Shown: one piece after another, positions 32,476 to 55,136 of the stretch | Layout of the letters: each line of letters opens with the position of its first letter | Position numbering within the stretch: position 1 is the stretch's first letter | Assembly (NCBI GenBank): GCA_963847445.1 | Contig: CAWJZV010000030.1 | Location: forward strand, 544,001 to 608,000 | Origin: an uncultured delta proteobacterium | Lineage (GTDB): Bacteria > Desulfobacterota > Binatia > UBA9968 | Direction of reading: 5' to 3' | Length of the DNA stretch: 64,000 nt | Translations under genes and position numbers: made by a program | Notes under the pieces: generated by a model | What the model was told of the DNA's origin: nothing | The model's database searches: none | What the model saw: the letters and a program-made list of their open reading frames with translations, nothing else

Positions 32476-32586
32476 GCCGAACCATACAAGCCGTAAACTA
32501 GCTGCGCCCAGCGGCACCACCATGCTTGCCTGGGGAATCATAAGCCGTTTCTCCAATCGGCTCCCTGGTTCGGGAGGTTGCCACCG

Positions 32587-33639
32587 ATGATCCACCGACA
32601 ACTCCACGCCACATCGGTTCTGGCTTGCCTGACCCTGAGCCTATGGATTGGCGTCAACGCGCAAGCCCAGGTCGACGGCTTCTACAACGGCAAAACCGTG
32701 CGCATCATCGTCGGCGCAACGCCCGGCGGCTTTTACGATCGTTGGGCGCGGCTGCTGGCGCGTTACATACCCAAGTACATCGCCGGCAACCCCAATTTCG
32801 TCGTGCAAAACATGCCGGGCGCCGGCTCCGTGGTGGCGGCCAACTATGTTTACCACTTGGCCAAACCCGACGGGCTAACGCTAGGCATGCCGCTCAACAG
32901 CCTGCACCTCGACCAGCTCGTCGGCCGGCCAGAAGTAAAGTACGATTTGCGCAAATTTGTCTATATCGGCAGCCAAGAAAAGACCCCAACGATGATGTAC
33001 TTTCGCGCCGACAGCCCGATCAAATCGCTCGACGATATCATTCAAGCCAAGGAACCGCCCAAATGCGGCTCGAGCGGGACGACCAGCACCGCCTATACCG
33101 TGTCGAAGCTGCTCAACGAAGCATTCAAGGCCAAGACCATCAGCATAAGCGGCTACCAGGGGGGCAGCGAGATCGATCTGGCCGTGGAGCGCGGCGAAAT
33201 CGTTTGCCGTCAAATGGACGTGCCGCCGCACTTTGGCCGCGAGCCATTTGATGGTTGGCATAAGCGCGGCTTCGACCGCCATATCTTTCAAGGCGGGCCC
33301 AAGCGCGATGCGCGCTTGGCCGAGGTGCCGACGCTGTTCGAACTGCTGGACCAATACAAGTCGCCGGCGATCATGCGCAGTCTGACCCGGGTGATTCTCG
33401 CCAGCGGCGAAATGGGCCGGCCGATGATGGCGGGGCCGGGAGTACCGGCGGAGCGGATCAAAGCGCTGCGCGATGCTTACGGCAGAGCGATGCGCGATCC
33501 GGCCCTGATCGAGGAAGCGAAGAAGGGCCAGATGGACTTGGAATATACCGCCGGCACAGAGCTTCAAGCACAGATCAACGAAATCATCAGCCAGCCGCGC
33601 GAGGTGATCGAGCTGGTCAAGAAAGTTTTGACGGATTGA
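32587..33639 (+). CDS. tctC: TctC/Bug binding protein, array member 1 (plain leader)
   Basis: FYNGKT, PGGFYDRWAR, QNMPGAGS, KPDGLTL, PPKCG, GYQGGSEIDLAVERGE. Confidence 0.9.
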   Translation: MIHRQLHATSVLACLTLSLWIGVNAQAQVDGFYNGKTVRIIVGATPGGFYDRWARLLARYIPKYIAGNPNFVVQNMPGAGSVVAANYVYHLAKPDGLTLGMPLNSLHLDQLVGRPEVKYDLRKFVYIGSQEKTPTMMYFRADSPIKSLDDIIQAKEPPKCGSSGTTSTAYTVSKLLNEAFKAKTISISGYQGGSEIDLAVERGEIVCRQMDVPPHFGREPFDGWHKRGFDRHIFQGGPKRDARLAEVPTLFELLDQYKSPAIMRSLTRVILASGEMGRPMMAGPGVPAERIKALRDAYGRAMRDPALIEEAKKGQMDLEYTAGTELQAQINEIISQPREVIELVKKVLTD

Positions 33640-33646
33640 GGCGATT

Positions 33647-34740
33647 ATGAAATTCCAATTCACAAACCCGTTCAAAGGTTCAAAGGTTCAAACGTTCAAG
33701 GTTCTCGGACCGCTAGTCCTTTCCGTCGTTGAACTGTTGAACCCTTTGAACCTTGAACCGGCGTTTGCGCAGAGCGCCATTTCTATCAAGACAAGTCCGT
33801 GCGCATCATCGTCGGTTTCACGCCGGGCGGCTTCTATGACCGCTGGGCCAGGTTACTATCGCGCTATATGCCCAAATACATCCCCGGCAACCCCACCTTC
33901 GTCGTGCAAAACATGCCCGGCGCGAGCTCGGTGATCGCCGCCAACTATGTCTATAATTTGAGCAAGGCGGACGGCCTGACGCTGCTGGTGCCGATCAATA
34001 GTCTCTATCTCGATCAAGTGGTTGGCCGGCGTGAAGTAAAGTTCGATGTCAGAAAATTCGAATTCATCGGCACGCAAGAAAAAGCTCCGACCATGCTCTA
34101 CTTCCGTGCCGACAGTCCGTTCAAAACCCTGGGCGACATCATCAACGCCAAGGAACCGCCGAAGTGCGGCTCCACCGGCACGGCGAGCACGGGATACCTG
34201 CTCGCCAGGATCATGGACGAAGCATTCAAGGCCAAAATGACCACCGTCACCGGCTACCAGGGCGGCAGCGAGATCGACATCGCCGTCGAGCGCGGCGAGA
34301 TCGTTTGCCGCGGCATGGACATCCCGCCGCACTTTGGCCGCGAACCGTTCGACGGCTGGCATAAGCGCGGCTTCGACCGGCATATCCTACAGAGCGGCCC
34401 CAAGAAAGATCCGCGCATGGGCGACGCGCCGACACTGTTCGAACTGATGGAGCAATTCAAAACTCCCGAGGTCATGCGCGGTGTCGCACGGGTGATTCTG
34501 GCGAGCGGCGATTTTGGCCGGCCCATGGTCGCCGGCCCCGGCAATCCGCCCGAACGCATCAAAATCATGCGCGCCGCCTATGCCGGCGCGATGCGCGACC
34601 CGGGGCTCATCGAGGAAGCGAAAAAAAGCCAAATGGATATGGAACACACGCCGGGGGAAGAACTCCAGGCGCTGATGAAGGAATTGTTGAATCAACCGCG
34701 TGAAGTGATCGAAAGAGTTAAAAAAGTGTTGTCGGAATGA
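33647..34740 (+). CDS. tctC: TctC member 2 (repeat-encoded leader; frameshift ~33780)
   Basis: PFKGSKVQTFKVLGPLVLSVVELLNPLNLEPAFAQ followed by TctC motifs. Confidence 0.9.
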
Positions 34741-34752
34741 GGTTGCTATGAA

Positions 34753-35854
34753 ATGATCAAACTCAGCAAGACCCGGTTCAAACGTTCAAAAGTTCAAAGC
34801 GTTCAAGCGTAAGCTTCGGATTCAGCTGATTCTTGTTTCTGATCCCTTGAACTTTTGAACCCCTTGAACCTTGAACAGGTATTCGCGCAAGCGAATTTCT
34901 ATCAAGGTAAAACCATCCGCATCATCGTTGGCCTGACGCCGGGCGGCTTCTACGATCGCTGGGCGCGCCTGCTCGCCCGCATTCATGCCGCTTTACATAC
35001 CGGGCAATCCCAGCTTCATCGTGCAAAACATGCCGGGCGCGGGCTCGATGATCGCTATGAATCATGTCTACGGCGTCGCCAAAGCCGACGGGCTGACCCT
35101 CGGCATGCCCAATTACGGCGTCTATCTCGACCAACTGTCAGGGCGTAAAGAAGTCCGTTACGACATCACCAAGATGTACTACATCGGCTCGCCGGAGAAG
35201 AGCGACATCATTCTCTACGCGCGCGCGGACGCCCCATTCAAATCAGTCCAGGACATGAGAAAGCTCGCCGAGCCTGCTAAGTGCGGCGCCACCGGCACCG
35301 CCGGCGCGGACTACCTGATCGCGAAAGTTCTCGAAGACACCCTTGGGGTCAAGATCAATACGGTCGTCGGTTATGCCGGCGGCAGCGAGATCGACATCGC
35401 CGTAGAGAAGGGCGAAGTGCAATGCCGCGGCATGACCATCGCGCCGCACTTCGGCCGCGAGCCGTTCGATAGCTGGCATAAGAAGGGCTTCGATCAGCAT
35501 ATCGTGCAAACCTCGGAGAAGCGCGATGCCCGCGTCGCTGAGGTGCCGACGCTTTACGAAATCTTCGACAAAGAAAACACCGCCGATGAGAGCCGACGGG
35601 TCGCCGATGTGATTTTGCGCGGCGGCGACTTTGGCCGCCCCATGCTGGCTGGTCCCGGCACGCCGCTCGACCGGGTGAATATGCTGCGCGAGGCTTACGT
35701 CAAATCAATGAACAATCCCGAGCTCATCGCCGAGGCGAAGAAAGCTCGTATGGACATGGAGCCGGTCACCGGCGAACAGCTGCAAGCGCTGGCGAACAGA
35801 GTCATGAACCAACCGCCTGCCGTGCTCAAGCGCGTCAGAAAAATCCTTGAATAG
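34753..35854 (+). CDS. tctC: TctC member 3 (repeat-encoded leader; frameshifted)
   Basis: LNPLNLEQVFAQANFYQGKT, PGGFYDRWAR, PAKCG. Confidence 0.88.
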
Positions 35855-35915
35855 ATATTTTGCCAATTGCCAATCATCACCATCGCCGGTCGTCAGCGGC
35901 CGGACGGGAGGACCC

Positions 35916-36958
35916 ATGAAAGCCCTAATCCTGGTGCTCTGTCTCGTTGGCGCGTGGACTTCTCCACCTGCCAGCCCAGACACCCTATTACCAAGGCAAG
36001 CAAATCAAAGTCGTCGTTGGTTTCACCACCGGCGGTTTTTACGATCGCTGGGCGAGACTGCTGTCCCGATATATGCCCAAGCATATCCCGGGCAAGCCCG
36101 AGATGATTGTCCAGAATATGCCCGGCGCCGGCTCGGTCATCGCGGCCAATTTCGTCTATAGCGTCGCCAAAGCGGACGGACTGACCATCGGCTTCCCGAG
36201 CAATGCGCATTTACCTCGATCAATTGATCGGCCGCGGCGAAGTTAAGTACGACGTGCGCAAATTCGCTTGGATCGGCTCCCCGGTCACCGAGCCGATGAT
36301 CTTTTATGTGCGCAGCGACTCGCCGTTCAAAACGATCCAAGACATCAAGAACGCCAAGGAGCCGGCGAAATGCGGTTCCACGGGCACGGTCAGCAGCGAC
36401 TACATCCTGGCGCGACTGCTCGAAGAGACCTTGCCGCCGACCAAGATCAACACGATTTTGGGCTATCCTGGAGGCGCCGAAATCGACTTGGCGGTCGAAA
36501 AAGGTGAAGTCTCTTGCCGCGGTATGACCGCTTCTCCCTTCTTTGGCCGGGAGCCCTTTCTCAGCTGGCAGAAGAAAAACTTTGTCCGCGTGCTCTTCTT
36601 CACCGGCAGCAAACGCGACAAACGGCTTCCCGATGTGCCGACGCTGTACGAGATATTTGACCGGGAAAAGGTTCCCGAAGACCGGCGCCGCATAGCCGAG
36701 GTCATCCTTGCAGCCGAAGAGTTTGGCCGTCCGATCATCGCCGGACCCGGCACTTCAGCCGAGCAAGTCAAAATCCTGCGCCATGCTTTCGATCAATCTT
36801 TAAAGGATCCGGAGTTACTCGCGGATACAATAAAACAGAAAATGGATGTCGATCCCGAGAGCGGCGAGAACCTCGAAAAGCTCGTCGCCAAAACCATGAA
36901 CCAACCCGCCGACGTTATCGCGCGGGTTAAAAAACTTCTCGGGCAATTAGTTGATTAA
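35916..36958 (+). CDS. tctC: TctC member 4 (plain leader; frameshifted)
   Basis: MKALILVLCLVG, YYQGKQ, TGGFYDRWAR, PAKCG. Confidence 0.88.
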
Positions 36959-37012
36959 ACCAATTTCGATGGTAATTTTCGCGTTAGAAAAAAATTAGGA
37001 GGTCAGAACTAG

Positions 37013-38042
37013 ATGTTAAGATTATTAGCAATTTTGTTTTCCTTGATGATCGGCCAGGCGGCCTACGCCCAGACCCCGTTCTATCAAGGAAAAACCATTA
37101 CGATTATAGTCGGCACCAAAGCGGGCGATGCCTATGATTTATATCCGCGCATGCTCGCCGAGTTCATGCCCAAATATATTCCCGGCAATCCCAACATCAT
37201 TATTCAGAACGTTCCTGGGGCGGCGTCGCTGATCGCGGCCAATCAAGTCTACAATATCGCCAAACCGGATGGCCTGACCATCGCGGCCATCTATCCGGCG
37301 CTCTACTTCGAGCAGCTCACGAAAAAACCCCAGGTGAAGTTCGACTGGACCAAGTTCGGCTGGATCGGCAGTCCGGTGAAATCGAACCACATGCTCTACA
37401 TGCGCGCGGACGCCCCGTACAAATCCATGGACGACATCAAAAATGCCAAGACGCCGCCCAAGTGCGGCGCCAGCGGCGTGACTTCCACCGGCAACTATCT
37501 GCCGAAGCTCATGGAAGAGATCCTCGGCACGAAGTTCGAGATCGTTCTTGGGTATCAAGCCGGCCAGGACGTGGATCTTGCCGTGGAGCGCGGTGAGATC
37601 GTGTGCCGGGCGTTCACGATCACCGCATACATGGCGCGCGAGCCGTTCATTTCGTGGCGCAAGCGCGGTTTCGTCAATGAGCTGATGCAAACCGGCGCCA
37701 AACGCGATCCGCGCTTGAAAAATGCGCCGACGATCTACGAGCTCATGGATCGGTACAAAACCGACGCCGCCGGCAGAAGCCTCGGCAAGCTCATCCTGGC
37801 GGCAGGCGAGTTTGGCCGGCCGCTGGTCACTCCCCCAGGGTTCCCCGCTGCTCAGTTCAAGATCCTCCGGGAGGCTTTCGATAAAGCCGTGAGCGATCCT
37901 GCGCTGCTGGCAGCCGCGGAAAAACGTCGTCTGGAAATGGATCCGACGGATGGCGCGGAGATGGAAGCGTTGGCGAAAGAGGTCATGGCCGCAAGCCCTG
38001 AGCGTCGTAAAACGAGTGGAAGATCTTTTGGGCGGAAAATAA
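37013..38042 (+). CDS. tctC: TctC member 5 (plain leader; 3' frameshift)
   Basis: MLRLLAILFSLMIGQAAYA, GTKAGDAYDLYPR, PPKCG. Confidence 0.9.
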
Positions 38043-38130
38043 AACACAGCTCCGGGTACCCCTCAAGGTTGCATCAGAGCGGCCTTGAGGGGTATGCTCC
38101 GGCAAATTTTCGGCGGGAAGGAGAAAATTT

Positions 38131-39159
38131 ATGTTTTCAACTCTCGTTGTATTGGCCACTCTTGTCTGGAGTTCAACTGTATTCGCGCAAACTCCCTTTT
38201 ACCAAGGCAAGACCATCAGCATTGCCGCCGGCACCAAGGCCGGCGATGTCTACGATCTCTATCCGCGTTTGCTCGCCGAGTATATGCCGAAGCATATTCC
38301 TGGCAGTCCCAATATCATCGTGCAAAATATCCCGGGCGCGGCTTCATTGATCGCCGCCAATCAGGTCTATAATACTGCCAAGCCCGATGGTCTGACTCTT
38401 GCGGCGATCTATCCCGCGCTCTATTTCGACCAGCTGATCAAGCGACCGGAAGTAAAATACGATTGGGCTAAATGGCAGTGGCTCGGCAGTCCGGTAAAAT
38501 CGAACCAACTCCTCTACATGCGCGCCGACACACCGTACAAGTCGATGGATGACATCCGCAAGGCGGCCACGGCGCCGAAGTGCGGCTCCACCGGTATCGC
38601 TTCCGCGGGGTACTACATACCCAAGCTGCTGGAGGAAGTGTTGAACGGCAAGATAGACATTGTGTCGGGCTACGTGTCGGGACAGGATATCGATCTGGCG
38701 GTGGAACGCGGCGAGCTCCAGTGCCGGGCCTTCACGATTACCGCCTACTACGCCCGCGAGCCGTTTATCTCTTGGCGCAAACGGAATTTCACCAATGTGC
38801 TGGTACAAACCGGCAGCCAACGCGATGCTCGGATCAAGGAAACGCCGACCATTTACGAGCTGATGGATAAGGCCAAAACCAGTGCGGCCGGACGGACCCT
38901 GGCGAAGGTGATCCTGGCCTCGGGGGATTTGGGACGCCCCATCGTCGCCCCTCCGGGAGTGCCGGCGGATCGGATCAAGATCCTCCGCGATGCCTTCGAT
39001 AAGACGCTCGCCGACCCGGCGTTTCTTGCGGAAGCGGAAAGGCGTCGGCTCGAAATCGATCCGACCAAATGGGATGAAATGGAATCCCTGGCAAAGGAAG
39101 TCATGCTTACGCCCGCCGACGTGGTCGCGCGCATGAAAAAGTTGCTGAGTGACGGCTAA
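38131..39159 (+). CDS. tctC: TctC member 6 (plain leader)
   Basis: Intact 342-aa ORF, GTKAGDVYDLYPR, APKCG. Confidence 0.92.
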   Translation: MFSTLVVLATLVWSSTVFAQTPFYQGKTISIAAGTKAGDVYDLYPRLLAEYMPKHIPGSPNIIVQNIPGAASLIAANQVYNTAKPDGLTLAAIYPALYFDQLIKRPEVKYDWAKWQWLGSPVKSNQLLYMRADTPYKSMDDIRKAATAPKCGSTGIASAGYYIPKLLEEVLNGKIDIVSGYVSGQDIDLAVERGELQCRAFTITAYYAREPFISWRKRNFTNVLVQTGSQRDARIKETPTIYELMDKAKTSAAGRTLAKVILASGDLGRPIVAPPGVPADRIKILRDAFDKTLADPAFLAEAERRRLEIDPTKWDEMESLAKEVMLTPADVVARMKKLLSDG

Positions 39160-39188
39160 AGGCAACAACCAGGAACGAAGCCAGCTGC

Positions 39189-40253
39189 ATGATCAACCAA
39201 GAGATCAGCGGATCGGTCCTGATCGTGTCGGCTATCGGTCCTGATTGCTCCTCTCGTCTGCTATTCGACCTGCGCTTTACGCCCAAACTCCCTTTTACCA
39301 GGGCAAAACCATCAGGCTCGTCGCCGGCACCCCGGCAGGCAGCGTGTACGATCTCTATGCGCGCATGGTCGCCCAATTTCTCCCCAAGCATATTCCCGGC
39401 AATCCCAATGTCATCGTGCAAAACATGCCGGGGGTCGCCTCCATGGTTGCGGCCAATTACATTTACACCGTCGCCAAACCCGATGGCCTGACCATCGGCT
39501 CGATCCAACCGGCGCTCTATTTCGATCAACTGGTCGGGCGCAAGGAAGTCCAGTTCGACTGGCAAAAATTTACCTGGATCGGCAACACCACGGTGTCGCA
39601 CCATTTGCTCTACATGCGCAGCGACACGCCGTATAAAACCATCGAAGACATCCGCAAGGCCGCCGTGCCGCCCAAATGCGGCGCCGAAGGCACTGCGTCA
39701 TCGGCCTACTACTTCCCCAAGCTCTTGGAAGAAACCATCGGCGCGAAGTTCAACATCGTCACCGGTTACAACTCCGGCACCGATGTCGACCTGGCGGTGG
39801 AGCGCGGCGAAGTGCAGTGCCGCAGCCTTCACCATCGCCGCCTTCTTTGCCCGCGAGCCGTTTCACACCTGGCGCAAAAAAGGCTTTGTCCGGGTAATCG
39901 TGCAAACCGGCAAGAAACGCGATGGCAAAATACCCGATGTACCGACTCTGGAAGAACTCATGGACCAGCATAAGACGTCCGACTCGGCGCGCCGTCTGAG
40001 CGCGGTGATCTTGGCCGCCAATGAGATCGGCCGGCCGATCGTCGGCACTCCCGGGATTCCGGCCGATCGTGTGAAAATTCTCCGCGAAGCTTTCATGAAG
40101 ACAGTGACCGATCCAGAGCTCTTGGATGACGCCAAAAAGAAAAAACTCGACTTGGATCCGGTCTCCGGCGAGGAGCTGGAGAGTCTCGGCAAAGAGATCA
40201 TGGCGCAACCGCCGGACGTCATCGAACGCATGAAAAAACTATTGGGAAGTTAA
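39189..40253 (+). CDS. tctC: TctC member 7 (plain leader; frameshifted)
   Basis: GTPAGSVYDLYAR, PPKCG, AVERGEVQCR. Confidence 0.88.
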
Positions 40254-40289
40254 AAGCGCCAAGACAAACGGATCAAAGGAGAAGCCAAC

Positions 40290-41336
40290 ATGAAAAGACT
40301 CGCATTCGTTCTATTCGTCCTGTCTGTCCTATTCAGTCCGCACGGCTTAACCTGCATGCGCAGACGCCATTCTACCAAGGCAAGACGATCACGATCATCG
40401 TCGCGCGCCAAGGCGGGCGACATCTATGACCTTTACCCACGCCTGGTCGCGGAATTCATGCGGCAGGCATATTCCGGGAAACCCGAACATCATCATTCAA
40501 AACGTCGCCCGGCGCCGCCGGCCTGATCGGCACCAATCAGGTTTACAATATCGCCAAACCTGACGGTCTGACCCTCGGCGCGATCTATCCGGCGCTCTAT
40601 TTCGAGCAGCTCGCCAAACGGCCCGAAGCCAAATTCGACTGGACCAAGTTCATCTGGATCGGCAGCACGGTGAGCTCCAACAGTCACATGTATATGCGCG
40701 CCGATACCCCGTATAAAACCATCGAAGATGTCCGTACCGCAGCGACGCCGCCGAAATGCGGCGCAACGGGCGTAACCTCGTCGGCCTATTACATGCCGAA
40801 ACTCCTCGAAGACGCTATCGGCACCAAGTTCGAGATTGTCTCAGGTTATGTCGCCGGGTCGGATATCGACCTCGCCGTCGAGCGCGGCGAAGTTCAGTGC
40901 CGGGCCTTTACGATCAACGCCTTCTTCTCCCGCGAGCCATTTATCACCTGGCGCAAGAAAAATTTCGTGCGCGTGCTCTATCAGACCGGCAGCAAGCGCG
41001 ATGCACGGCTCAAGGACGTGCCGTTGTTCAGCTGAATTGATGGACAAGTACAAGACGCGCTGAAAGCGTCCGGCGGCTCGCCAAAGTGGTGCTGGCCGCC
41101 GATGAATTCGGCCGTCCGCATCGTCTTCCCTCCAGGCGTGCCCTGCCGACCGGGTAAAGATCATTCGCGATGCTTTCAACAAGACCATCAACGATCCCGC
41201 TCTCTTGGCGGAGGCGGAAAAGCGCCGACTCGACATCGACCCGGCAACGGGTGAAGAACTCGATTCCTTGGCCAAAGAAGTCATGACCGCGACGCCGGAC
41301 ATCGTCGAACGGGTGAAAAAACTGATCGGCATGTAA
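40290..41336 (+). CDS. tctC: TctC member 8 (plain leader; many frameshifts)
   Basis: KAGDIYDLYPR, PPKCG, AVERGEVQCRAFTI. Confidence 0.85.
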
Positions 41337-41372
41337 CGGCGCAGGTAGGCCACTGCCTGCTGCAGAAGGGCG

Positions 41373-42463
41373 ATGCAAAGGTCGCTCAAAGAGTTCAAAG
41401 GTTCAAGATTCAAGGTTGCTCAATCTCGAATCGTATCGACCGTCGCTTGATCTTTTGACACGCCTTTCTGAACCTTGAACCGGCGTCGGCGCCAGACGCC
41501 CTTCTATCAAGGCAAGACGATTCGCATCGTCATCGGCTCCTCCACCGGCGGCGGTTACGATCTGTGGGCGCGCGTTTTAGCGCGCTACTACGGCAAATAC
41601 ATCCCGGGTAATCCAACAATTCTCGTGCAGAACATGCCCGGCGCGGCGTCGATCGTCGCGACCAATTATTTGTACAACGTCGCCAAGCCCGACGGTCTGA
41701 CTCTCGGCGCGCTGCTGCCGGCGATTTACTTCGATCAGCTGGTCGGGCGCAAAGAAGTGCAGTTCGACTTCGCCAAGATTCCCTGGATCGGCTCGCCGGA
41801 ACAAAACGACGATCCTGCACTACATGCGCGCCGATTCGCCCTACAAGTCGATCGACGACATCCGCAAAGCCAAGGAGCCGCCGCGTTGCGGCAGCTCCGG
41901 CACCGGCACGACTGGATTTTATATTCCCCGCCTGCTCGACGAAGTCCTGGGCACGAAACACACTGTCGTCGCCGGCTATCCTGGCGGCTCCGAAATCGAT
42001 CTCGCCGTCGAACGCGGCGAAGTGCACTGCTGGTCGCCGCTGATTGCGACGTACTTCGGCCGCGAGCCCTACATTAGCTGGCAGAAGAAGGGCTTCGTTC
42101 GAGTGATCGTGCAGTTCGGCGCCAAGCGCGAGCCGCGCCTGGCCGACGTGCCGACGATTTACGAGTTGATGGATCAATTCAAAACTCCCGACGCCGGCAA
42201 GCGCCTGACACGCGTGATCCTGGTCGCCGCGACCCTCGGTCGGCCCATCGCAGTCACGCCGGGAATTCCGCCCGACCGCTTGAACCTGCTGCGCGATGCC
42301 TATCAAAAGACGTTGAAAGACCCCGAACTCATCGCCGAGACCAAACGCCAACGCTGGGACATCGACCCGCTCACCGGCGAAGAGATGGAAAAACTTTCAA
42401 AAGAAGTCATGAGCGCAGCCGAAGGAAGTCATCGAAAGAATGAAATGGGTCTTGGGAAACTAA
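41373..42463 (+). CDS. tctC: TctC member 9 (degenerate repeat-encoded leader; frameshifted)
   Basis: STGGGYDLWAR, PPRCG, HCWSPLIATYFGREPY. Confidence 0.88.
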
Positions 42464-42467
42464 CATT

Positions 42468-43557: not shown

Positions 43558-43561
43558 TAAA

Positions 43562-44643
43562 ATGCTAAGCCCGTTCAAGGGTTCAAAAGTTCAAAGGTTC
43601 AAGGTTTTCGGACTTCTGATCTTTTCTGTCGTTGAACTTTTGAACCCTTTGAACCTTGAACGGGCGTCTGCGCCAGACGCCCTATTATTCCAGGCAAGAC
43701 TCTCAAGATCATCGTCGGGTCAGCGTCCGGCGGCGGCTACGACCTGTGGGCGCGCTTACTGGCGCTGCATATCGGCAAACATATTCCCGGCCATCCAACC
43801 GTGATCGTGCAAAACCTGCCCGGGGCCGGCGGCCTGGTTGCCGGCAATTTTATCTATGGTCTGGCCAAACCCGACGGCCTGACCATCGGCGCGTTCAATC
43901 CAGCGCTCTATTTCGAACAACTGGTCGGCAAGCCGGAGAGCAAATTCGATTGGACTAAGTTCAGCTGGATCGGCTCGCCGGAAAAGAATGACGCGCTGCA
44001 CTACATCCGCGCCGACTCGCCCTACAAAACCATCGACGACCTGCGCAACGCCAAGGAGCCGCCCAAGTGCGGCAGCACCGGCGGCGGCACCACCGCCCAT
44101 TACTTTCCCCGGCTGCTCGAAGACACCCTGGGCATTAAAACCACCCAGGTCACCGGCTATCAGGGCGGTTCAGAAATCGACCTCGCCGTCGAACGCAACG
44201 AAATAATCTGCTGGACGCCGCTGATCGCCACCTACTTCGGCCGCGAGCCCTACAAGCGCTGGCACAGGACGGGATTCGTCCGCGTCGTCGTCCAGACCGG
44301 CAACAAGCGCGACGAACGGTTAAAGGATGTACCGACGCTCACCGAACTGATGCAGCAGTATAAAACCCCTGAGGCCAGCCGCCGGCTCGCCAAAGTCGTG
44401 TTAACCGCCGCCAACCTCGGCCGCCCCATCGCCGGCCCGCCGCGCCTGCCGTCCGAACAATTAAAAATTCTCCGCGACGCCTACGCGAAATCGATGCAAG
44501 ATCCCGAGCTCCGCAGCGAAGCCGCCAAGCGCGCCTGGGATGTCGAGCCCCACACCGGCGCCGAACTTGAAGCGTTGGCGAAGGATGTCATGAACCAACC
44601 CAAAGAAGTGATCGAGCGGATGAAATGGGTGTTGGGGAACTAA
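43562..44643 (+). CDS. tctC: TctC member 11 (repeat-encoded leader; frameshifted)
   Basis: MLSPFKGSKVQRFKVFGLLIFSVVELLNPLNLERASA, SGGGYDLWAR. Confidence 0.9.
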
Positions 44644-44694
44644 TCTCTAGGCCGCGAGTGGACGATTGCGCACAAGTATTAACTCTGCAAAATC

Positions 44695-44790
44695 CGTCAC
44701 ACCGGCGCAGGCCGGTGTCCATTTCCGGCTTCGGCAGACTAGCAAAAAGACCACAACCGCCCCTGGATTCCGGCCTGCGCCGGAATGACG
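44695..44790. repeat. REPIN-like paired palindrome
   Basis: cgtcacaccggcgcaggccggtgtcca...tggattccggcctgcgccggaatgacg. Confidence 0.85.
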
Positions 44791-44893
44791 GAACCCGCAC
44801 ACAGACAACTTGCAACCGACAGCACTAAACTGACAAGCTTCAATGCAAAGAATCTCTGGTCTAATCTGATATACGCTGAGTGTGAGGCCATTC

Positions 44894-46021
44894 ATGACCG
44901 TTGGATTTCAAGATTCGCTCAAACGTTCCCCTCGGCGGACTCAGGGCCTGAGTTTATCGAAGGCAACAGTTCAAAGGTTCAAGGTTCTCGGACTCCTGCT
45001 CTTTTCAGCCCTTGAACTTTTGAACCCCTTGAATCTTGAACGAGTATTCGCGCAGGCGAATCCCTATCAGGGTAAAACGCTGCGGGTGATCGTCGGTTCA
45101 TCGAGCGGCGGCGGTTACGATCAGTGGGCACGCCTGATGGCGCAGCATATCGGTAAACATCTACCCGGCCATCCGACGGTTATAGTTCAGAATATGGTCG
45201 GCGCCGGCGGGGTGGTTGCCGCGAATTATTTATACGGCATTGCCAAGCCCGACGGCTTGACCATCGGCGGTTTCAACCCGGCGCTCTATTTCGATCAATT
45301 GGTGGTGCGGCCGGAAGTTAAATTCGATTGGGCGAAATTCACCTGGATCGGCTCGCCGGAAAAAAATGACCTCATCCACTTCATCCGTACCGACGCACCG
45401 TTCAAAACCATCGACGACTTGCGCAATGCCAAGGAACCGCCGAAATGCGGCAATACCGGCACCGGCAATAGCGGTCTCTACGTGCCGCGCGTGCTCGAAG
45501 AAACCCTCGGCATCAAGACCACCGTCATCAGCGGCTATCCCGGTGGCGCGGAAATCGACCTCGCCGTCGAACGCAACGAAGTGGTTTGCTGGTCGCCCTT
45601 GAGCGGCACTTACTTTGGCCGCGAGCCCTATAAGCGCTGGCACAACTCCGGCTTCGTCCGCGCCGTCGTCCAGACCGGCGCCAAACGCGACGAACGACTG
45701 AAGGAAACACCGACGCTGAATGAATTGATGCAGCAATACAAAACACCCGATAGCGGCAAACGGCTCGCCAAAGTGATCCTCACCGCAGCCACTCTCGGCC
45801 GCCCCATCGCCGCTCCGCCGCGCCTGTCCGCCGAGCAGACAAAAATTCTCCGCGACGCTTATACCAAGACGATGAAGGACCCGGATCTGCTCGCCGATGC
45901 CGCCAAACGCGGCTGGGACGTCGACCCATCGACCGGTGCCGAGCTCGAATCGCTGGCGCGGGAAGTCATCGTCCAACCCAAAGAAGTTATCGAGCGCATC
46001 AAGTGGGTATTGGGGAATTGA
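44894..46021 (+). CDS. tctC: TctC member 12 (repeat-encoded leader with nested REP motif; intact)
   Basis: Uninterrupted ORF ...TVQRFKVLGLLLFSALELLNPLNLERVFAQANPYQGKT, SSGGGYDQWAR. Confidence 0.92.
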   Translation: MTVGFQDSLKRSPRRTQGLSLSKATVQRFKVLGLLLFSALELLNPLNLERVFAQANPYQGKTLRVIVGSSSGGGYDQWARLMAQHIGKHLPGHPTVIVQNMVGAGGVVAANYLYGIAKPDGLTIGGFNPALYFDQLVVRPEVKFDWAKFTWIGSPEKNDLIHFIRTDAPFKTIDDLRNAKEPPKCGNTGTGNSGLYVPRVLEETLGIKTTVISGYPGGAEIDLAVERNEVVCWSPLSGTYFGREPYKRWHNSGFVRAVVQTGAKRDERLKETPTLNELMQQYKTPDSGKRLAKVILTAATLGRPIAAPPRLSAEQTKILRDAYTKTMKDPDLLADAAKRGWDVDPSTGAELESLAREVIVQPKEVIERIKWVLGN

Positions 46022-46056
46022 AGAATGGAGTAATGGAATATTACGGTAGTGGAGTG

Positions 46057-47056
46057 ATGGAACCTGACAAGCGGCCCCGCAGACAAAAATGGGCGGGGCG
46101 TCTTACGCTTTGCGCTTTGCTCTTTGCACTTAGCCTCCCCGCCCAGGCGCAGCAGCCGGCAAAGGTGTTTAAGATTGGCTATCTCGATATCGGTAGCTCA
46201 ATGTCCAGATATCAGTCTTTGCGGCGTATCCTCCCTGATCTCGGCTACGTTGAGGGCAGGAACATCTCCTTCGAGTATCGATCGGCTGACAACAAGCTGG
46301 ACCGACTTCCCGCCTTAGCTGAAGAGCTGATCCGTCTCGATGTTGACGTACTCGTCACACGCGGCACACCTGAAGCCCTAGCTCTCAAGAACGCTACCAG
46401 GACAATTCCTATTGTTTTTTACGACGTGACTGATCCTATTGCGGCGGGACTCATTGACAGCCTGGCCCGGCCTGGTGGAAATATCACAGGGTTTACCGGG
46501 TTGGAGGCGGTGTTGGCAGGCAAACGATTGGAGTTACTGAAGGAAACCGTTGCCAAACTCTCCCGCGTCGCGGTGTTATGGAATCCGCAGGATCTAAGCT
46601 CGGCGCAACAATGGAAAGCAATGCAACTGTCGGCACGCGACCTGGGGTTACAACTGCATTCGATGGAAGTCAGCAATCCCGACAAATATGAGAGTGCGTT
46701 CAGAGAAGCAACTAAAGCGCGGAGTGGCGCTCTCGCTGTGATAGCCGGAGGGTTGGAAGACGCGAACAGAAAAAAGATCGCAGAGTTGGCAATAAAGATT
46801 CGGCTGCCAACAATATATCCTCGTCCACATTTTGTCGAAAGCGGCGGACTGATGTCCTACGGACGCGATCCTGAAGATTCTAACAAACGGGTACCAATTA
46901 TGGTCGACAAGATTCTGAAAGGAACCAAGCCTGCTGACATTCCAGTCGAACAGCCGACTAAAGTTCGAGCTGGTGATCAATTTCAAAACCGCCAAGACTC
47001 TCGGCCTGACGATTCCACCGATCGTGCTGATGCGGGCGACCAAGGTGATCAAATGA
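46057..47056 (+). CDS. ABC_sub_bind-type substrate-binding protein (3' frameshift)
   Basis: LCALLFALSLPAQAQQPAKV, SLARPGGNITG, GTKPADIPVEQPTK. Confidence 0.88.
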
Positions 47057-47147
47057 AGAAGGCAGTAGGCATGAGGCAATAGGCAACGGTAAAAAAGAAA
47101 GATAACCGCGATAGTTTGGATCAGCCCCCTTTTATAGGAGCTAAACC

Positions 47148-47720
47148 TCACCGCCAAAGATCAGGGAGCGAAATGGATAGACCAGGGAAAAGCAACGGGG
47201 TAAACGTTTCGGCGTTTTGAGTTTTAATGACGAGCTGGTATTGGTCGCCGGATAGTTCGTAGGCTTCGAGAGTCTGTTGATCGGGGTCGATGAGCCAGTA
47301 GTGAGGCACGTCGTACTTGGCGTAAAGCTGAGCTTTAGTCTGGCGGTCTGCGCGGTGCGTTGTGGGTGATAGGATCTCGATGACGAGACTCGGTGCCCCT
47401 TCGATGGCCCGCTCTGTGACAATGCCGCGGCGGTCGTCGCCAATGAAGATGAGATCGGGCTGCACGACGGTCGTGGGAGCGAGTATCACGTCGGTAGGCG
47501 CCGCGTAAATATCGCCAAGTTGGTTGGCCACAATATGGTTGGCGAGAATCCGATAAAGGTGGCCAGAAATGCTTTGATGTTTTGTGCGCGGCGCAGGCGT
47601 CACGGCAAGTTCTCCATCGAGGATCTCGTAACGGTTACGGTCGTTAGGCAATTCGCAGTAATCGTCGTAGGTCAGAACGATCTTGCCTGGCGGAATGCTT
47701 TGAGTGGAAGTAGACGACAT
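47148..47720 (-). CDS. Uma2-family (DUF820) putative endonuclease
   Basis: LTYDDY, RYEILDGEL, VQPDL, LVIEILSP, YWLIDP. Confidence 0.9.
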   Translation of the reverse strand: MSSTSTQSIPPGKIVLTYDDYCELPNDRNRYEILDGELAVTPAPRTKHQSISGHLYRILANHIVANQLGDIYAAPTDVILAPTTVVQPDLIFIGDDRRGIVTERAIEGAPSLVIEILSPTTHRADRQTKAQLYAKYDVPHYWLIDPDQQTLEAYELSGDQYQLVIKTQNAETFTPLLFPGLSISLPDLWR

Positions 47721-47834
47721 ATTAGCTTCTTACAACGACTGTGAACTTTATACATGCAGGTTCTAGCAACTCGAACGGGTTGTCAAGTGAGCCAATGACC
47801 CGGCCCTGAGTTCCATGACTCTTGGGAGAACAAC

Positions 47835-48470
47835 GTGATCAAAAAGCTATCCGGAGATCGTGAATTCCTGTCCGACAATCGAAAATCCGTCGTGCTTATC
47901 GCTATCGGTGCCGCATTCGCGTTGTGCGGCGCTCTCGCCGACGCGCAACAACGAACGAAAATCCCCTGGATCGGCTATATGGCTGACGCCGGCTCGTCGC
48001 CCAACCAAGCTTTTCTACAAGGGTTGCGCGATCTCGGCCATTTCGAGGGCAAGAACATCGCATTTGTCTTTCGCACGACGGAGGGAAAACTGAACGGCGC
48101 GCCGAACTTCTCGCCGAGTTTGTACGCTTAAAGGTTGACATCATTTTCGCCGATGGATCGGGCGCGGCGATTGCCGCCAAGAAGGCCACGAGCACGCTTC
48201 CGATTGTAATGACCGGTGCTACCGATGCAGTTGGCATGGGCCTCGTCGCCAGCCTAGCGCGGCCTGGCGGTAACATAACGGGATTGACCAACATCACCGG
48301 AGAGTTGGGTGGAAAACTTTTGGATCTAAGATTCTCAAGGGCGCGAAACCAGCTGACTTCCGGTTGAAGCACCGATGAAATTCAATCTAGAGATTAACTT
48401 ACAAACGGCGAAACAGATTGACCTGACGGTCCCTCAGACAGTGCTGTAGGGCGGATAAGAGTGACCAAGA
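47835..48470 (+). pseudogene. internally deleted ABC_sub_bind remnant
   Basis: QQRTKIPWIGY...SLARPGGNITG, then jumps to a degenerate KIL.GA..ADF.VE.P.KF.L.INL. Confidence 0.75.
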
Positions 48471-48574
48471 AGGCAGCAGACAAAAGGCAAGAGTAAGAAA
48501 TCCCCATTGCACTCAGGCTAGACTTCGCGGTACTCATAGGCGGCGTTATCCGCTTGTTAACCATGAGGTGATTC

Positions 48575-49671
48575 ATGACGCACGGGGAAAAACATCCGTT
48601 CCAAAGTTCAAAGGTTCAAGCGTTCAAGGTTCTCGGATTTCTGGTGTTTTCTGTCGTTGAACTTTTGAACCCTTGGAACCTTGAACCGGCGGCGGCGCAG
48701 ACGCCGCCGTTTCTATCAAGGCAAAACCATCACGTTCATCGTCGGCACCAAGGCTGGCGATGTTTACGATCTCTACCCGCGGCTGTTGGCGGAGTACATG
48801 CCGAAGTATATTCCGGGAAATCCTAACTTCATCATTCAAAACGTCGCCGGCGCGGCGTCGCTGATCGCGGCGAACCAGGTGTACGGCATCGCCAAGCCCG
48901 ACGGGTTGACGCTCGGCGCGATTTATCCGGCGCTTTATTTCGATCAATTGGTGAAACGGCCGGAAGTGAAATACGACTGGAGCAAGTTTGCCTGGATCGG
49001 CAGTCCGGTGGGCTCCAACCACATGATGTACATGCGCAGCGACACGCCCTTCAAGACTATTGACGATGTGCGCGGCGCCGCGACGCCGCCCAAATGCGGC
49101 ACCTCGCGGCACCACGTCGACCGGCTATTATATTCCCAAACTCTTGGAAGAAGCGGTCGGCGCCAAATTCGATATCGTCACCGGTTACCAGGCCGGCCAG
49201 GACGTAGACCTCGCCGTCGAGCGCGGCGAGGTGGTCTGCCGCTCATTCACCATCACGGCGTTTCACGCCCGCGAGCCCTACTTCAGTTGGCGCAAGCGCA
49301 AATTCGTCCACGTGCTCTATCAAACCGGCAACAAGCGCGACGGGCGGTTGAAAGATGTGCCGACCATGTACGAATTGATGGATCGATACAAAACCACCGA
49401 GCCGGTGCGCAAGCTCGCCAAGGTTATTTTAATCGCCAGCGACCTGGGCCGGCCCATCGTCGCCCCGCCGGGCGTGCCGGCCGAGCGCTTGAAAATCATC
49501 CGCGATGCCTTTAACAAGTCGGTGAGCGACCCGGCATTCTTAGCCGAGGCGGAAAAGCGCAGGTTGGAAATCGATCCATCGACTTGGGATGAGCTCGAAC
49601 CCTTGGCCAAGGAAGCCATGGCGACGCCGGCCGATGTGGTTGAACGCATGAAAAAAGTCTTGGGCATGTAA
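48575..49671 (+). CDS. tctC: TctC member 13 (repeat-encoded leader; frameshifted)
   Basis: PFQSSKVQAFKVLGFLVFSVVELLNPWNLEPAAAQ, GTKAGDVYDLYPR. Confidence 0.9.
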
Positions 49672-49697
49672 AGCCATTGAGGTTAAGGAGGTTGTTC

Positions 49698-50796
49698 ATG
49701 AAGTCTGCCGTCAAGCGGCCGTTCAAAGGTTCAAAGGTTCAAACGTTCAACGGTTCTCGGTTTTCTGGTCTTTTCCATCGTTGAACTATTGAACCCTTTG
49801 AACCTTGAACCGGCGGCGGCGCAGACGCCGCCTTTTTATCAAGGCAAGACTATTCGTATCATCGTCGGCAATCTGCCCGGCGATACCCATGACATATTTG
49901 CCCGCGCTTACTCGCGTCACATGGGCAAACATATTCCCGGCTTCCCGAATATCCTGGTGCAGAACATGCCCGGCGCCGGCGGCATGATCGCGGCCAATCA
50001 TGTCTACAACGTTGCCAAGCCGGATGGACTGACGCTCGGTTCGCCGTCGCCGGCGTTGTATTACGCCCAGCTGATCGGCAGCAGCCAAGCCAAATTCGAT
50101 TGGCCCAAATTCAATTTCATCGGCGCGCCGGAGCGCAACGGCCATTTGTTGTTCATGCGCGCGGACTCGCCCTATAAGACGCTCGACGATATCCGCAAAG
50201 CCAAGGAGCCGCCCAAATGCGCCGCCACCGGAGTCGGCACCAGCGGCCACGACGTGCCCAAGCTGTTTGACGAGATGATCGGCTTGAAGTTCAACCTGAT
50301 CACCGGTTATCCCGGCGGCGCGGAGATGGATCTAGCCATCGAACGGGGCGAAGCGATTTGCCGTGCCATCACCATCGCGGCGTTCTTCGCCCGCGAGCCC
50401 TTTCAGAGCTGGTATAAGACCGGTGTCGTGCGCGTCATGTTGCAAACCTCGCGTCAGCGCAACCCAAGAATTCCCGACGTGCCGACGTTGTTCGAGCTGA
50501 TGGAGCAATACAAAACTCCGGAGATCAAGCGCCGCCAGGTGCTGACCTATCTCGGCGTTGGCGGTTTCGGCGCCTGGCCCATCCTCGCGACGCCAGGAAT
50601 CCCGGCGGAGCGCGTGGCGATCCTCCGCGACGGCTTCGGCAAGACCATGAAAGATGCCGACTTCCTCGGCGAGGCGAAAAAAGCCGGTTGGGAAATCCGT
50701 CCGACGAACGGCGAAACCTTGCAGGCACTCGCCAAAGAAGTCATCGAACAACCGCCGGAAGTGGTCGATTGGCTGAAAAAACTACTCAACAAATAA
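49698..50796 (+). CDS. tctC: TctC member 14 (repeat-encoded leader)
   Basis: RPFKGSKVQTF...ELLNPLNLEPAAAQ, GNLPGDTHDIFAR, PPKCA. Confidence 0.9.
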
Positions 50797-50816
50797 CCTG
50801 ACAATGAGAAGTCTCC

Positions 50817-51939
50817 ATGGCACTTCGACTAACGATCGTTCAAGGGCCTTCCGGTTCAGCCGAGTTTACGAAGGCAAAAGTTCAAGGGTTCAATCGGATT
50901 CTTTTCGGATTTCTTGTTCTGACCCTTGAACTTTTGAACCCCTTGAACCTTGAACGGGCGTCTGGCCCAGACGCCCTATTATTTGGGTAAAACCATCCGC
51001 GTCATCGTCGGTTATCAGCCAGGAGACACCCATGATCTATGGGCGCGCATGTACACGCGCTATATGGGCAAGTACTTGCCCGGCAATCCGACCTTTGTGG
51101 TGCAAAACATGCCCGGTGCCGGCGGCATGATCGCCGCCAATCATGTTTTCAATCTGACCAAGCCCGACGGCCTGACGCTTGCCACCGTCGGCGGCGCGCT
51201 TTACTTCAATCAGTTGATCGGCCGTGCGGAAGTTAGATTTGACTGGAACAGGTTCACTTGGATCGGCACGCCGGAGCCCGCCGGCCTGCTGGTCTACATG
51301 CGCACCGACGCGCCGTATAAGACCTTGGACGACCTGCGCCAGACCAACGATCCGCCGAAATGTTCCGCCACCGGCTTGGGCAGCGCCGGTTACGACTTGC
51401 CGCGGCTGCTCGAAGATGTCTTAGGGCTTAAATTCAAAGTCATCAGCGGCTACCCCGGCGGCGCCGACCAGGATCTCGCCATGGAACGGGGCGAAGTCCA
51501 CTGCCGGGCTTTTACCATCGAAGCCTTTTTCGGCCGCGAACCTTATTTCACCTGGGTCAAGAAAAACTTCGTGCGCGTGCTGTTGCAAACCGAACGAAAG
51601 CGCCATCCGAAGTTGCCCGACACACCGACCATCTACGAACTGATGGATCAGTACAAGATTGACGCGGCCAAGCGGCGCATGGCCAGCGTCTATCTCAGCA
51701 GCGGCCGGTTCGGCTCCCGGCCGATCGTGTCGTCGCCGGGGTTATCGGCGGAACGCGCCAAAATGCTGCGCGACGCCTACGCGAAGACCCTCAAAGATCC
51801 CGACTTTCTCGACGAGATCGGCAAACGGAGCTGGAGCGTCGAACCGGTATACGGCGAAGAATTGCAGGCGCTCGCCAAAGAAGTCACCAGCCAGCCGCCG
51901 GAAGTGATCGAGTGGTTAAAAAAATTGTTGTCGAAATAA
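50817..51939 (+). CDS. tctC: TctC member 15 (repeat-encoded leader; frameshifted)
   Basis: cttgaacttttgaaccccttgaaccttgaac leader, GYQPGDTHDLWAR, PPKCS. Confidence 0.9.
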
Positions 51940-51962
51940 TTCGATTCGAAGCGAGGTCGGCC

Positions 51963-53061
51963 ATGGCAAATAAATCGAAACAGCGGTTCAAACGTTCAAC
52001 GGTTCAATCGTTCAACGTTCTCGGACTCCTGATTTTTTCCGTCGTTGAACTTTTGAACCCCTTGAACCTTGAACCGGCGTCGGCGCAGACGCCGCCTTTT
52101 TATCAAGGCAAAACCATTCGCATCATCGTCGGCTACCAGCCGGGCGACAATCACGACCAGTACGCGCGCACCTACGCGCGCTTCATGGGCAAGTATATTC
52201 CCGGCAATCCCACCTTCGTGATTCAGAACATGCCGGGCGCGGGTTCGATGATCGCGGCCAATCATGTCTACAACATGACCAAGCCCGATGGGCTGACGCT
52301 GGGCTCCTTCGGCGGCGCGCTGATTATGGCGCAGCTGACCGGACGCAAAGAAGCGCAGTTCGACTGGCCGAAGTATGGTTGGATCGGTACCCCCTACCGC
52401 GCCGGCCACCTGCTCTTTATGCGTACCGACGCGCCCACCAAGACGGTCGACCAATTGCGCCAGGGGAACGACCCGCCGCGCTGTTCGGCCACCGGCGTCG
52501 GCAGCACCGGCTATGACATTCCCCGGCTGCTCGAGGATGCCCTCGGCATGAAATTCAAGATCATCAGCGGTTATCCTGGCGGCGCCGACCAGGACCTGGC
52601 AATGGAACGCAACGAAGTGAACTGCCGCGCCATCACCATCGACGGCTTCTTCGCCCGCGAGCCGTTCATCTCGTGGGTCAAGAAAGGCTTCGTGCACGTG
52701 CTGCTGCACACGGAAAAACAGCGCCACGCCAAGATCCCCAACGTGCCAACCGTCTTCGAGCTGATGGATCAGTACAAGGTCGCCGAGGCCAAACGCCGCC
52801 TGGTCAACACCTATTTGGGACTCTGGGGCTTCGGCTCCATGCCCATCGTCACCACGCCCGGAGTTGCCCGCCGAGCGGGTCAAGCTGCTGCGCGAAGCGT
52901 ATTTGAAAACCTTTACCGATCCGGAATTTCAGGAAGACATGGTGAAAAGAGGCTGGGAACCGCGCCCGGTGAACGGCGACGAACTCGCCGCTCTCGCCAA
53001 AGACGTCATCAATCAGCCGCCGGAAATCAGCGAAGCAATCAAACGGATACTCAGTCAATGA
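51963..53061 (+). CDS. tctC: TctC member 16 (repeat-encoded leader in frame; 3' frameshift)
   Basis: MANKSKQRFKRSTVQSFNVLGLLIFSVVELLNPLNLEPASAQTPPFYQG, GYQPGDNHDQYAR. Confidence 0.9.
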
Positions 53062-53085
53062 TCGCCTGAAAAAATCATCGACAGG

Positions 53086-54895: not shown

Positions 54896-55136
54896 ATTTA
54901 CCCGCCACGAAACACGCGAATTCGTCTATAGTCTTGCGCCAGGCGTCTAGGGTTTATCCGAACCCGGACGCCGGCGATAAGTCCCGCCGCCATGCCGGCA
55001 AGAGGCGATAATGTTCCAGCGTGCAACTCAACACCCTAAACACTGAACCCGCAAACCGCATTCAGCAGTTGACAGCCAGTCACATTTCAGTGGGATAAGC
55101 AAAGCATCTGACAGATCCAAGGGAGGACAGCAAATT

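Follow-up and report, generated by a model that had tools for sequence, protein, structure and literature searches.

The leaders of a tandem TctC array

The window, by which we mean the whole 64,000-nt stretch of DNA that was analyzed (G000:C30:544001-608000), comes from the genome of an uncultured soil bacterium, here called G000 (7.19 Mb in 48 contigs, with a completeness of 91.8% and a contamination of 6.9%). It contains a tandem array of sixteen genes, m1 to m16, which judging by their sequences encode paralogous periplasmic binding proteins for a tripartite tricarboxylate transporter (TTT). The units of the array run head to tail with a period of about 1.1 kb, as is apparent both from the repeat families in the window and from the open reading frames (ORFs), and the mature domain of the array members opens with the motif F/Y-Y-Q-G-K-T. 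Ten of the sixteen genes (m2, m3, and m9 to m16) have a leader encoded by a repeat, and the other six (m1 and m4 to m8) have a plain leader. The mismatch between the type of leader and the relatedness of the mature domains exceeds what chance would produce, and the repeat leader is a copy of a dispersed, genus-restricted palindrome that resembles the repetitive extragenic palindromes (REPs). We consider it likely that the palindrome encodes a leader cassette that has been moved among the members of the array, and among their orthologs in different species, by homologous recombination, and that the peptide of this cassette serves as a signal. The array and its repeat leaders are as follows.

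32578..53069, + strand: tandem array of sixteen TctC/Bug-family solute-binding protein genes, m1 to m16 (from ORFs, repeat families, Pfam TctC and tblastn chains)
32680, 33781, 34906, 35986, 37079, 38197, 39293, 40382: first codon of the F/Y-Y-Q-G-K-T motif in m1 to m8
41493, 42595, 43696, 45062, 48711, 49834, 50977, 52095: first codon of the F/Y-Y-Q-G-K-T motif in m9 to m16
33670..33758, + strand: repeat leader of m2, with four GTTCAA units, a 29-nt loop and four TTGAAC units
34776..34876, + strand: repeat leader of m3, with an atypical 40-nt loop and an in-frame TGA in the G000 assembly
41384..41479, + strand: repeat leader of m9, decayed, with the left arm present and the right arm partly gone
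42483..42571, + strand: repeat leader of m10
43573..43661, + strand: repeat leader of m11, followed by a small hairpin, GGGCGTCTG/CAGACGCCC, at 43662-43682
44969..45025, + strand: repeat leader of m12, with the frame open from GTG 44882 or ATG 44894 to the mature domain
48606..48670, + strand: repeat leader of m13, before a group-B (GTKAGD.YDLYPR) mature domain
49721..49810, + strand: repeat leader of m14, with the frame from the ATG broken by one extra G in AACGGTTC
50880..50955, + strand: repeat leader of m15, with loop type II
51986..52074, + strand: repeat leader of m16, with the frame open from ATG 51963 to the mature domain

A full palindromic leader is thus present upstream of nine genes (m2, m3, and m10 to m16), the copy at m9 being decayed. 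An earlier reading of the window from its sequence alone (the original prediction) had listed the genes with a repeat leader, and all of those listed do carry it, but m3, which carries it as well, was missing from the list. The repeat named in that prediction is likewise present, but at the DNA level it is an inverted repeat and not a protein motif alone. The m2 leader is in frame with the ATG at 33647 and has a 1-nt frame break at the junction, and the m13 leader is in frame from the ATG at 48575 and has a 1-nt insertion at the junction. A single-frame tblastn alignment starting at 43576 presented m11 as having an intact leader, an assignment that was rejected because the alignment crosses a stop in the leader.

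Other repeats were found in and near these leaders. The m12 leader has a second, nested repeat motif upstream of its palindrome. Nested within the N-terminal portion of two leaders, those of m12 (44930-44968) and m15 (50840-50880), is a third short motif of repeated sequence, CTCAGGGCCTGAG ... TTATCGAAGGCA, which occurs also in the leaders L007 and L015 (m13 of G009 and m14 of G007), where it is read as ...RRTQGLSLSKA.... Upstream of m12, at 44693-44792, is a second, unrelated inverted repeat with 29-nt arms that are 86% complementary and 42 nt apart. It is probably another dispersed repeat, since contigs from public runs have depths of 342 and 198 there (bin 44739-45405), and its motif is also found upstream of m10 in G003.

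Leaders and mature domains have different histories

Mature domains were compared in a maximum-likelihood tree of 101 rows, of which 52 came from G000 and 49 from eight related genomes. They gave clean ortholog clades across the nine genomes, with support values mostly of 99 to 100. In a tree restricted to the 52 paralogs of G000, the 11 genes with repeat leaders formed six separate clades among paralogs with plain leaders, and constraining these 11 genes to a single clade changed the log-likelihood by -535.9 units and was rejected by the approximately unbiased (AU) test (p-AU 9.6e-30). The two examples from which the original prediction had started belong to this pattern. The genes m1 and m2, described there as close in their mature domains with only m2 having the repeat, are sister clades with a Shimodaira-Hasegawa-like approximate likelihood ratio (SH-aLRT) support of 100 and a protein identity of 72%. 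The gene m13, described as a repeat-leader gene of the same GTKAGD.YDLYPR type as m5, m6, and m8, is indeed placed inside that group (group support, 98), as the sister of the m8 clade (support, 85).

Such a distribution could also result from one ancient gain of the repeat leader followed by many losses, in which case the plain leaders would be decayed or truncated repeat leaders. Parsimony gives six changes of leader type on the 52 rows and 10 to 11 on the 101 rows, counts that on an unrooted tree cannot separate gain from loss, and decay is visible in m9 of the window and in m10 and m16 of G008, where one arm is left. We nonetheless regard this explanation as quite improbable. A single gain requires 20 losses on the 52 rows and 24 on the 101 rows, which is not the history of one gain with simple losses that the original prediction had set against its own. 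Plain leaders are shorter than repeat leaders (a median of 30 versus 43 codons from the ATG) and are without residual arms. In addition, 119 of the 137 TctC loci of G000 are plain by an automatic rule. The "half" class that this rule gave to C32:32871 and C44:5583 was dropped, since by eye the solo arm is in the 5' untranslated region and the leader is plain; five further "half" loci, all outside the 101-row set, keep their automatic class.

Separate trees of leaders and mature domains, a comparison proposed along with the original prediction, proved to be incongruent. The tree of repeat leaders recovered two of 10 ortholog groups (m12 and m15) and contained 26 changes of ortholog label, compared with a minimum of 9 and a mean of 28.7 for shuffled labels. 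Judged by rough AU p-values, clades of orthologous leaders were rejected for m13 (0.0004), m14 (0.001), m10 (7e-5), m9 (9e-5), m2 (0.013), m3 (0.033), and m11 (0.046) and survived for m16 (0.057), so that seven of the eight groups were rejected overall. The nearest leader belonged to an ortholog in only 9 of 38 cases. Within G000, the leader DNA of m16 is 83 to 89% identical to the leaders of m14, m13, m10, m2, and m11, and mature-domain DNA is about 60 to 75% identical between subgroups.

Leader replacement between near-identical orthologs

Localized replacement of the leader has taken place between orthologs that are otherwise near-identical. When m14 of G000 is compared with m14 of G004, the mature domains are 96% identical over 900 nt and the leaders 81% identical; the upstream gene, the right arm, the c-region, and the mature domain are all nearly the same, and the replaced segment consists of about 90 nt, from the ATG to the loop. 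The m13 genes of the same two genomes have mature domains that are 97% identical and leaders that are 79% identical, with a loop of another type. Plain leaders have been replaced as well, as is seen in m7 of G000 and G004, where the mature domains are 95% identical and the leaders 65%. Five m14 orthologs from other species (L022 to L025 and L027), with protein identities of 87 to 98%, comprise four with repeat leaders, which differ from one another in the hydrophobic core and c-region, and one with a plain leader (L024, 94% protein identity). Logan contigs from related strains combine m3 and m9 mature domains with leaders similar to the m11 and m13 leaders of the window. A further joint, from position 42462 to 44689, could equally reflect the absence of m10 and m11 in related strains or the second repeat family, and no claim is drawn from it.

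The leader swapping suggested by the original prediction is therefore supported both by the discordant trees and by local replacement. The comparison of orthologous array members across related genomes, which it had recommended, found different leaders where mature domains are near-identical, and the crossover points that it had proposed, the repeat and the QTPFYQGKT junction, can be recognized. The replacement in m14 ends within the leader, and m13, which has the QTPP junction codons in common with its neighbor m14 and is a group-B protein directly after FYQGKT, switches type after that junction. The decay of an ancestral repeat leader leaves unexplained how mature DNA that is 96 to 97% identical can be preceded by leaders with different, intact cores.

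The repeat leader is a copy of a dispersed palindrome

The DNA of the repeat leader is an inverted repeat in which three or four (GTTCAAnn) units are followed by a loop of about 30 nt and then by three or four (nnTTGAAC) units. In an inverted-repeat scan of the window, the leader palindromes were recovered as inverted repeats I2, I10, and I13. As RNA, the m16 leader is predicted to fold into one long hairpin and a small one (-52.4 kcal/mol, z -5.65), and none of 200 shuffled sequences folded as well. A census of G000 detected 422 arms. Left and right arms are paired in 70 full elements, and 147 arms with three or more units stand alone. The full elements that adjoin the start of a TctC mature domain number 13 (nine in this array, one at C8:95420, and three in a second array on C24), and 57 do not adjoin one. 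Only 11 of the 70 are in a frame with at least 120 codons downstream, and 59 are not; five of the 11 are TctC leaders, and one, C24:68152, is the opposite-strand reading of an element of the C24 array. The remaining full elements are mostly intergenic, and the generic copies have unrelated loops of 16 to 86 nt. Contig indel rows that fall within the arms (43645, 43648, 50939, and others) are pile-ups of copies from across the genome and are uninformative for single members of the array.

The family is confined to the genus among the genomes compared, as the m16 leader DNA matched 11 of 12 other genomes of the genus (including G005) and none of eight genomes in two other families of the order. 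An Rfam scan of positions 32000-54000 at E values up to 1 returned five sub-threshold matches and no known RNA family; the best match was mir-203, with a chance-level score of 28.5 bits against a gathering score of 65. The repeat family also occurs in the 5' untranslated region of the paralogs on C32 and C44. In the second TctC array (G000:C24:66954-69490), the spacers hold a variant of the element with a 9-nt period and a G/C-rich central hairpin, and these elements are untranslated because the start codon follows each of them. The data thus support two points beyond the original prediction, namely that the leader is a recruited REP-like palindrome and that plain leaders have been replaced too.

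A gene resembling a REP-associated tyrosine transposase (RAYT) is associated with the family. A match to Y1_Tnp (PF01797, 65.2 bits) is located at G000:C2:49291-49620, within a 318-codon frame (C2:49225-50181) that has TTGAAC arms on its upstream side (47547-47797) and GTTCAA arms on its downstream side (51377-51516). Such a gene flanked by inverted repeats has the classical REP-RAYT layout, the enzyme itself being putative. Four Y1_Tnp matches were found in G000, three of them above the cut-off, and a degenerate second RAYT-like copy is found near an element at C1:36107-38105. As in REPs, the repeats have a high copy number, are mostly extragenic, and often form inverted pairs. The arm, however, consists of tandem GTTCAA units plus 1 to 3 nt and pairs only with the opposite arm. 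Because a single arm is not itself a palindrome, we use the term REP-like and stop short of classifying the element as a REP.

The dispersal of the element and the RAYT-like gene flanked by its arms raise the possibility that the leaders arose by independent insertions, that is, by separate transpositions (for example, by the RAYT-like enzyme) into the 5' ends of TctC genes as a preferred target and without exchange. The elements of the same family in the spacers of the C24 TctC array and in the 5' untranslated regions on C32 and C44 would fit such a history. So would the type II loops, which start and end like generic copies (TCGGA...TCTGAC), and the stem of at least 6 bp in 12 of 80 generic-element flanks, which is a possible target-like hairpin. 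Despite these points, we find independent insertions unlikely. Across all 38 aligned repeat leaders of TctC genes, a single register extends from the right arm as far as the Gln codon, and the last CCTTGAAC occupies the same alignment columns in each of them, as does the Gln codon. The leaders have two main loop types, both encoding a hydrophobic core and both absent from the generic copies, which have unrelated loops. The leader peptide matched TctC proteins almost exclusively (18 of 19 matches, described below), and the replacement tracts between orthologs stop inside the arm or the junction, as homologous exchange predicts. The single register and the common loop types point to one cassette spreading among TctC genes and not to repeated fresh insertions.

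Probable translation of the repeat leader

In the eight other genomes, 25 of 28 repeat leaders have a frame that starts at an ATG and remains open for at least 36 codons into the mature domain. The ATG of these 25 leaders is upstream of the left arm, and their frames cross the arms and at least three loop types of differing length. When the 42-residue leader peptide alone was searched against 5.8 billion proteins, 19 matches were returned, 18 of them with PF03401; these 18 proteins include the leader, given that they are 357 to 395 amino acids (aa) long. One match, P0002, is an intact ortholog of m16 with 365 aa, and P0001, a group-B TctC protein from a metagenome, has the leader cassette twice, in tandem and in frame. 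On the basis of the open frames in relatives and the near restriction of the peptide to TctC proteins, the repeat leader is most likely translated as a signal peptide.

When the leader is read as protein, its basic n-region (F-K-G/S-S-K-V-Q-x-F-K/N) comes from the left arm, its hydrophobic core of ten residues (VLGLLIFSVV or ILFGFLILTL) from the T-rich loop, and the sequence ELLNPLNLE from the right arm. An A-x-A or x-F-A follows the right arm, with Q-T-P or Q-A-N after it, and the same cleavage-type motif ends the plain leaders. Sec-type signals that are cleaved by signal peptidase I have a basic n-region, an h-region of 7 to 15 residues, and small residues at positions -3 and -1. By inspection, the m16 leader has five Lys/Arg ahead of an uncharged 10-residue core (VLGLLIFSVV) and A-S-A before Q, with about 13 residues, two of them Glu, between the core and the cleavage-type motif. 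The leader peptide may function as a Sec signal.

The repeat might instead not be a leader at all but an intergenic REP acting as a terminator or mRNA stabilizer, with translation starting downstream of it, for example, at the in-frame TTG of TTGAAC. The ORF list does place TTG starts within the right arm, most copies of the element are extragenic, and eight of 11 repeat leaders are frame-broken in the G000 assembly. Even so, this explanation seems very improbable. It is contradicted by the 25 of 28 leaders in other genomes whose frame is open from an ATG preceding the left arm and by independent assemblies that encode proteins of 357 to 395 aa including the leader. A start in the right arm would also produce, by inspection, a periplasmic binding protein without a hydrophobic signal.

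Directly after the right arm is a small GC-rich hairpin (for example, at 43662-43682 and 50956-50976). A small inverted repeat with perfect pairing over at least 6 bp that spans the cleavage-type motif was present in 26 of 39 repeat leaders, compared with 3 of 62 plain ones; of the flanks of generic elements, 12 of 80 had such a repeat. The small hairpin has three versions, GGGCGTCTG/CAGACGCCC, GGCGGCG/CGCCGCC, and ATTCGC/GCGAAT, which match the c-region and first mature residues ASAQTP, AAAQTPP, and xFAQAN, respectively. Classical covariation was rejected as a description of these versions: they pair in different registers and are therefore alternative palindromes rather than compensatory changes in one helix. 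They may reflect selection or may be a by-product of palindrome-templated repair. A different complementarity was observed in the plain leader of m5 (37037-37095), where 11 bases of the hydrophobic-core codons TTTTCCTTGAT are able to pair with the codons of the FYQGKT junction, ATCAAGGAAAA; the 98-nt stretch folds at -27.8 kcal/mol (z -3.5), and this complementarity could be due to chance.

Genes and neighbors of the array

The assignment of the array to the TctC/Bug family is based both on PF03401 matches above the gathering score and on association with TctA and TctB. Three of the sixteen members were scanned with Pfam TctC (PF03401), and all three exceeded the cut-off of 27 bits (m1 with 65.8, m10 with 61.2, and m12 with 47); the remaining 13 are linked to these three as queries by tblastn, with identities of 51 to 72%. 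The features that border or interrupt the array are as follows.

32041..32475, + strand: TctB-like small membrane subunit, upstream of the array (PF07331, 33.3 bits)
46003..48381, no strand assigned: insert between m12 and m13, the only interruption of the array
46003-47082, + strand: ABC_sub_bind gene in the m12-m13 insert
47148-47720, - strand: Uma2 endonuclease gene in the m12-m13 insert
47835 (start), + strand: further ORF in the m12-m13 insert
53091-53243: remnant of a 17th TctC copy, C-terminal part only, between m16 and TctA
53396..55011, + strand: TctA large membrane subunit, downstream of the array (PF01970, 249 + 117 bits)

TctA is in two frames in the G000 assembly, with positions 2-274 and 277-406 of the PF01970 profile in two ORFs. 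The order of the genes m1 to m16 is identical in G003 and G004. In G004, m13 comes directly after the 3' end of a TctC gene without the insert, and the similarity between G000 and G004 picks up again after the insert within the left arm of the m13 leader. Beyond this array, G000 contains about 137 TctC-like loci by tblastn and 78 by Pfam match, and most of its TctC paralogs do not have TctAB adjacent to them.

Broken frames and points against a translated, exchanged cassette

A number of points weigh against a translated leader cassette that is exchanged by recombination. All of the comparison genomes are metagenome-assembled genomes. The trees were all produced by a quick search under LG+G4 or GTR and not under a careful mixture model. 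The leader alignment, with 38 repeat leaders and 114 usable columns, forces different loop types together, the AU p-values of the leader tree are rough on account of this short alignment of related sequences, and the constraint of forming a palindrome could raise the similarity of leaders that are not orthologous. No donor was found for the plain L024 leader, whose best local DNA match was 22 nt. The spacer from the hydrophobic core to A-x-A is about 13 residues with two Glu, which is long for the c-region of a Sec signal. Finally, in G000 the frame from the ATG to the mature domain is open in 3 of 11 repeat leaders (m12, m16, and C8:95523); in the remaining eight, a single-base indel or a stop interrupts it. 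If these breaks are real, most copies in the window are not expressed as written.

The breaks in the leader frames are probably assembly errors, which may have been worsened at strain differences. Frameshifted mature domains were found in 19 of 52 genes of G000, 5 of 11 of G003, and 5 of 16 of G004, which are the three few-contig assemblies, and in none of 22 genes from six fragmented assemblies. Other genes of the window are split or truncated as well, including TctA (53396-55011), a hybrid kinase-regulator (16802-18725), EamA (62262-63177, in two overlapping frames), and AMP-binding pieces (15979-21170), and the rpoB gene of G000 is intact. The limitation of frameshifts to few-contig assemblies, the split genes outside the array, and the intact rpoB argue for indel errors of assembly rather than for pseudogenes. 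At the m7 frameshift site (39824), one base is absent in contigs from three public runs of related strains.

A possible route of leader exchange

If the leaders are exchanged cassettes, the left arm, loop, and right arm of the dispersed repeat would provide a ready-made leader with a fixed architecture. Gene conversion or unequal crossing-over between array units would exchange this cassette among array members and among orthologs from different species, so that the route would be recombination rather than transposition. Three tracts would supply the homology: the repeated arms, the conserved 3' end of the gene upstream, and the junction CAGACGCCnTTCTATCAAGGCAARACC. The QTPFYQGKT junction is the most conserved stretch of the gene. 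Since the cassette would be exchanged independently of the mature domain, leader type would not follow the mature-domain tree. The RNA hairpin may have a second role between cistrons.

A repeat family that supplies a complete functional module, the predicted export signal, would mean that the leader is traded among paralogs and strains as the ligand-binding domain evolves vertically. Should the leader work as read here, it would represent a case of selfish or structural DNA recruited de novo to encode a signal peptide, a cassette-like modularity of bacterial signal peptides, and a recombination hot spot only about 100 nt long in an operon-like array. A more far-reaching hypothesis, which we put forward tentatively and hold to be rather doubtful, is that a RAYT-type repeat has been domesticated as an interchangeable signal cassette, with the same palindrome of about 100 nt acting as an export signal, as an mRNA hairpin between cistrons, and as a homology tract for shuffling. 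Under this hypothesis, the hairpin between cistrons would set the stability or termination of the mRNA of the upstream gene, and the small hairpin would be a case of nucleic acid palindromy shaping the first residues of a mature protein. There are also consequences for annotation, as these starts will be treated differently by gene callers and by repeat maskers and mixed-strain assemblies appear to break exactly at the repeat leaders.

Comparison with known repeat and transporter systems

Palindromic repeats inside genes are known mainly as passengers, as in Rickettsia. The Rickettsia palindromic elements (RPEs) of Ogata et al. are reportedly found within a variety of protein-coding genes, where the peptide that they encode is said to have no known role. 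The leader repeats resemble RPEs in being dispersed palindromic repeats of about 100 nt that are in frame inside ORFs and are carried as extra peptide. They differ in that here the repeat provides the whole N-terminal export signal, as predicted, of a single protein family, always in one register and as a cassette that can be exchanged. Neither the organism nor the sequence is related, and the resemblance is one of mode of action and not of membership.

REPs are extragenic by definition, and in the family described here a subset is coding. The family shares several features with REPs, with REP doublets forming hairpins (REPINs), and with RAYTs, as far as these are set out in the parts of PMC3116915, PMC2817692, and PMC3337134 considered here: dozens to hundreds of short, mostly extragenic repeats, inverted pairs around a spacer, a Y1 HUH transposase gene flanked by repeats in inverted orientation, and a distribution limited to one lineage. 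A REP unit is an imperfect palindrome of 20 to 40 nt, commonly with a GTAG or CGTC head, according to part of the text of PMC3733652, whereas the arm here is made of tandem 7- to 9-nt GTTCAA units. Another difference is that G000 has not one Y1_Tnp match but four, three of them over the cut-off.

Expansions of TTT solute-binding proteins include the Bug proteins of Bordetella and the 434 genes of Rhodoplanes, as given in the abstract-level text of PMC5994714. With about 137 loci, G000 is similar in having many TctC paralogs in one genome, and repeat-encoded or exchanged leaders are not mentioned in that abstract-level text. At the level of titles and abstracts, no literature was found that links REPs, RAYTs, or palindromic elements with signal peptides.

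The palindromic amphipathic repeat coding elements (PARCELs), to the extent that they are outlined in excerpts of PMC2996958, are similar in that they are palindromic repeats that code for protein and may adopt DNA or RNA structures and spread from gene to gene. They are, however, tandem intragenic repeats that form the body of surface proteins in Mollicutes and others, whereas the leader described here is a single N-terminal signal cassette, as predicted, that is derived from an extragenic repeat family.

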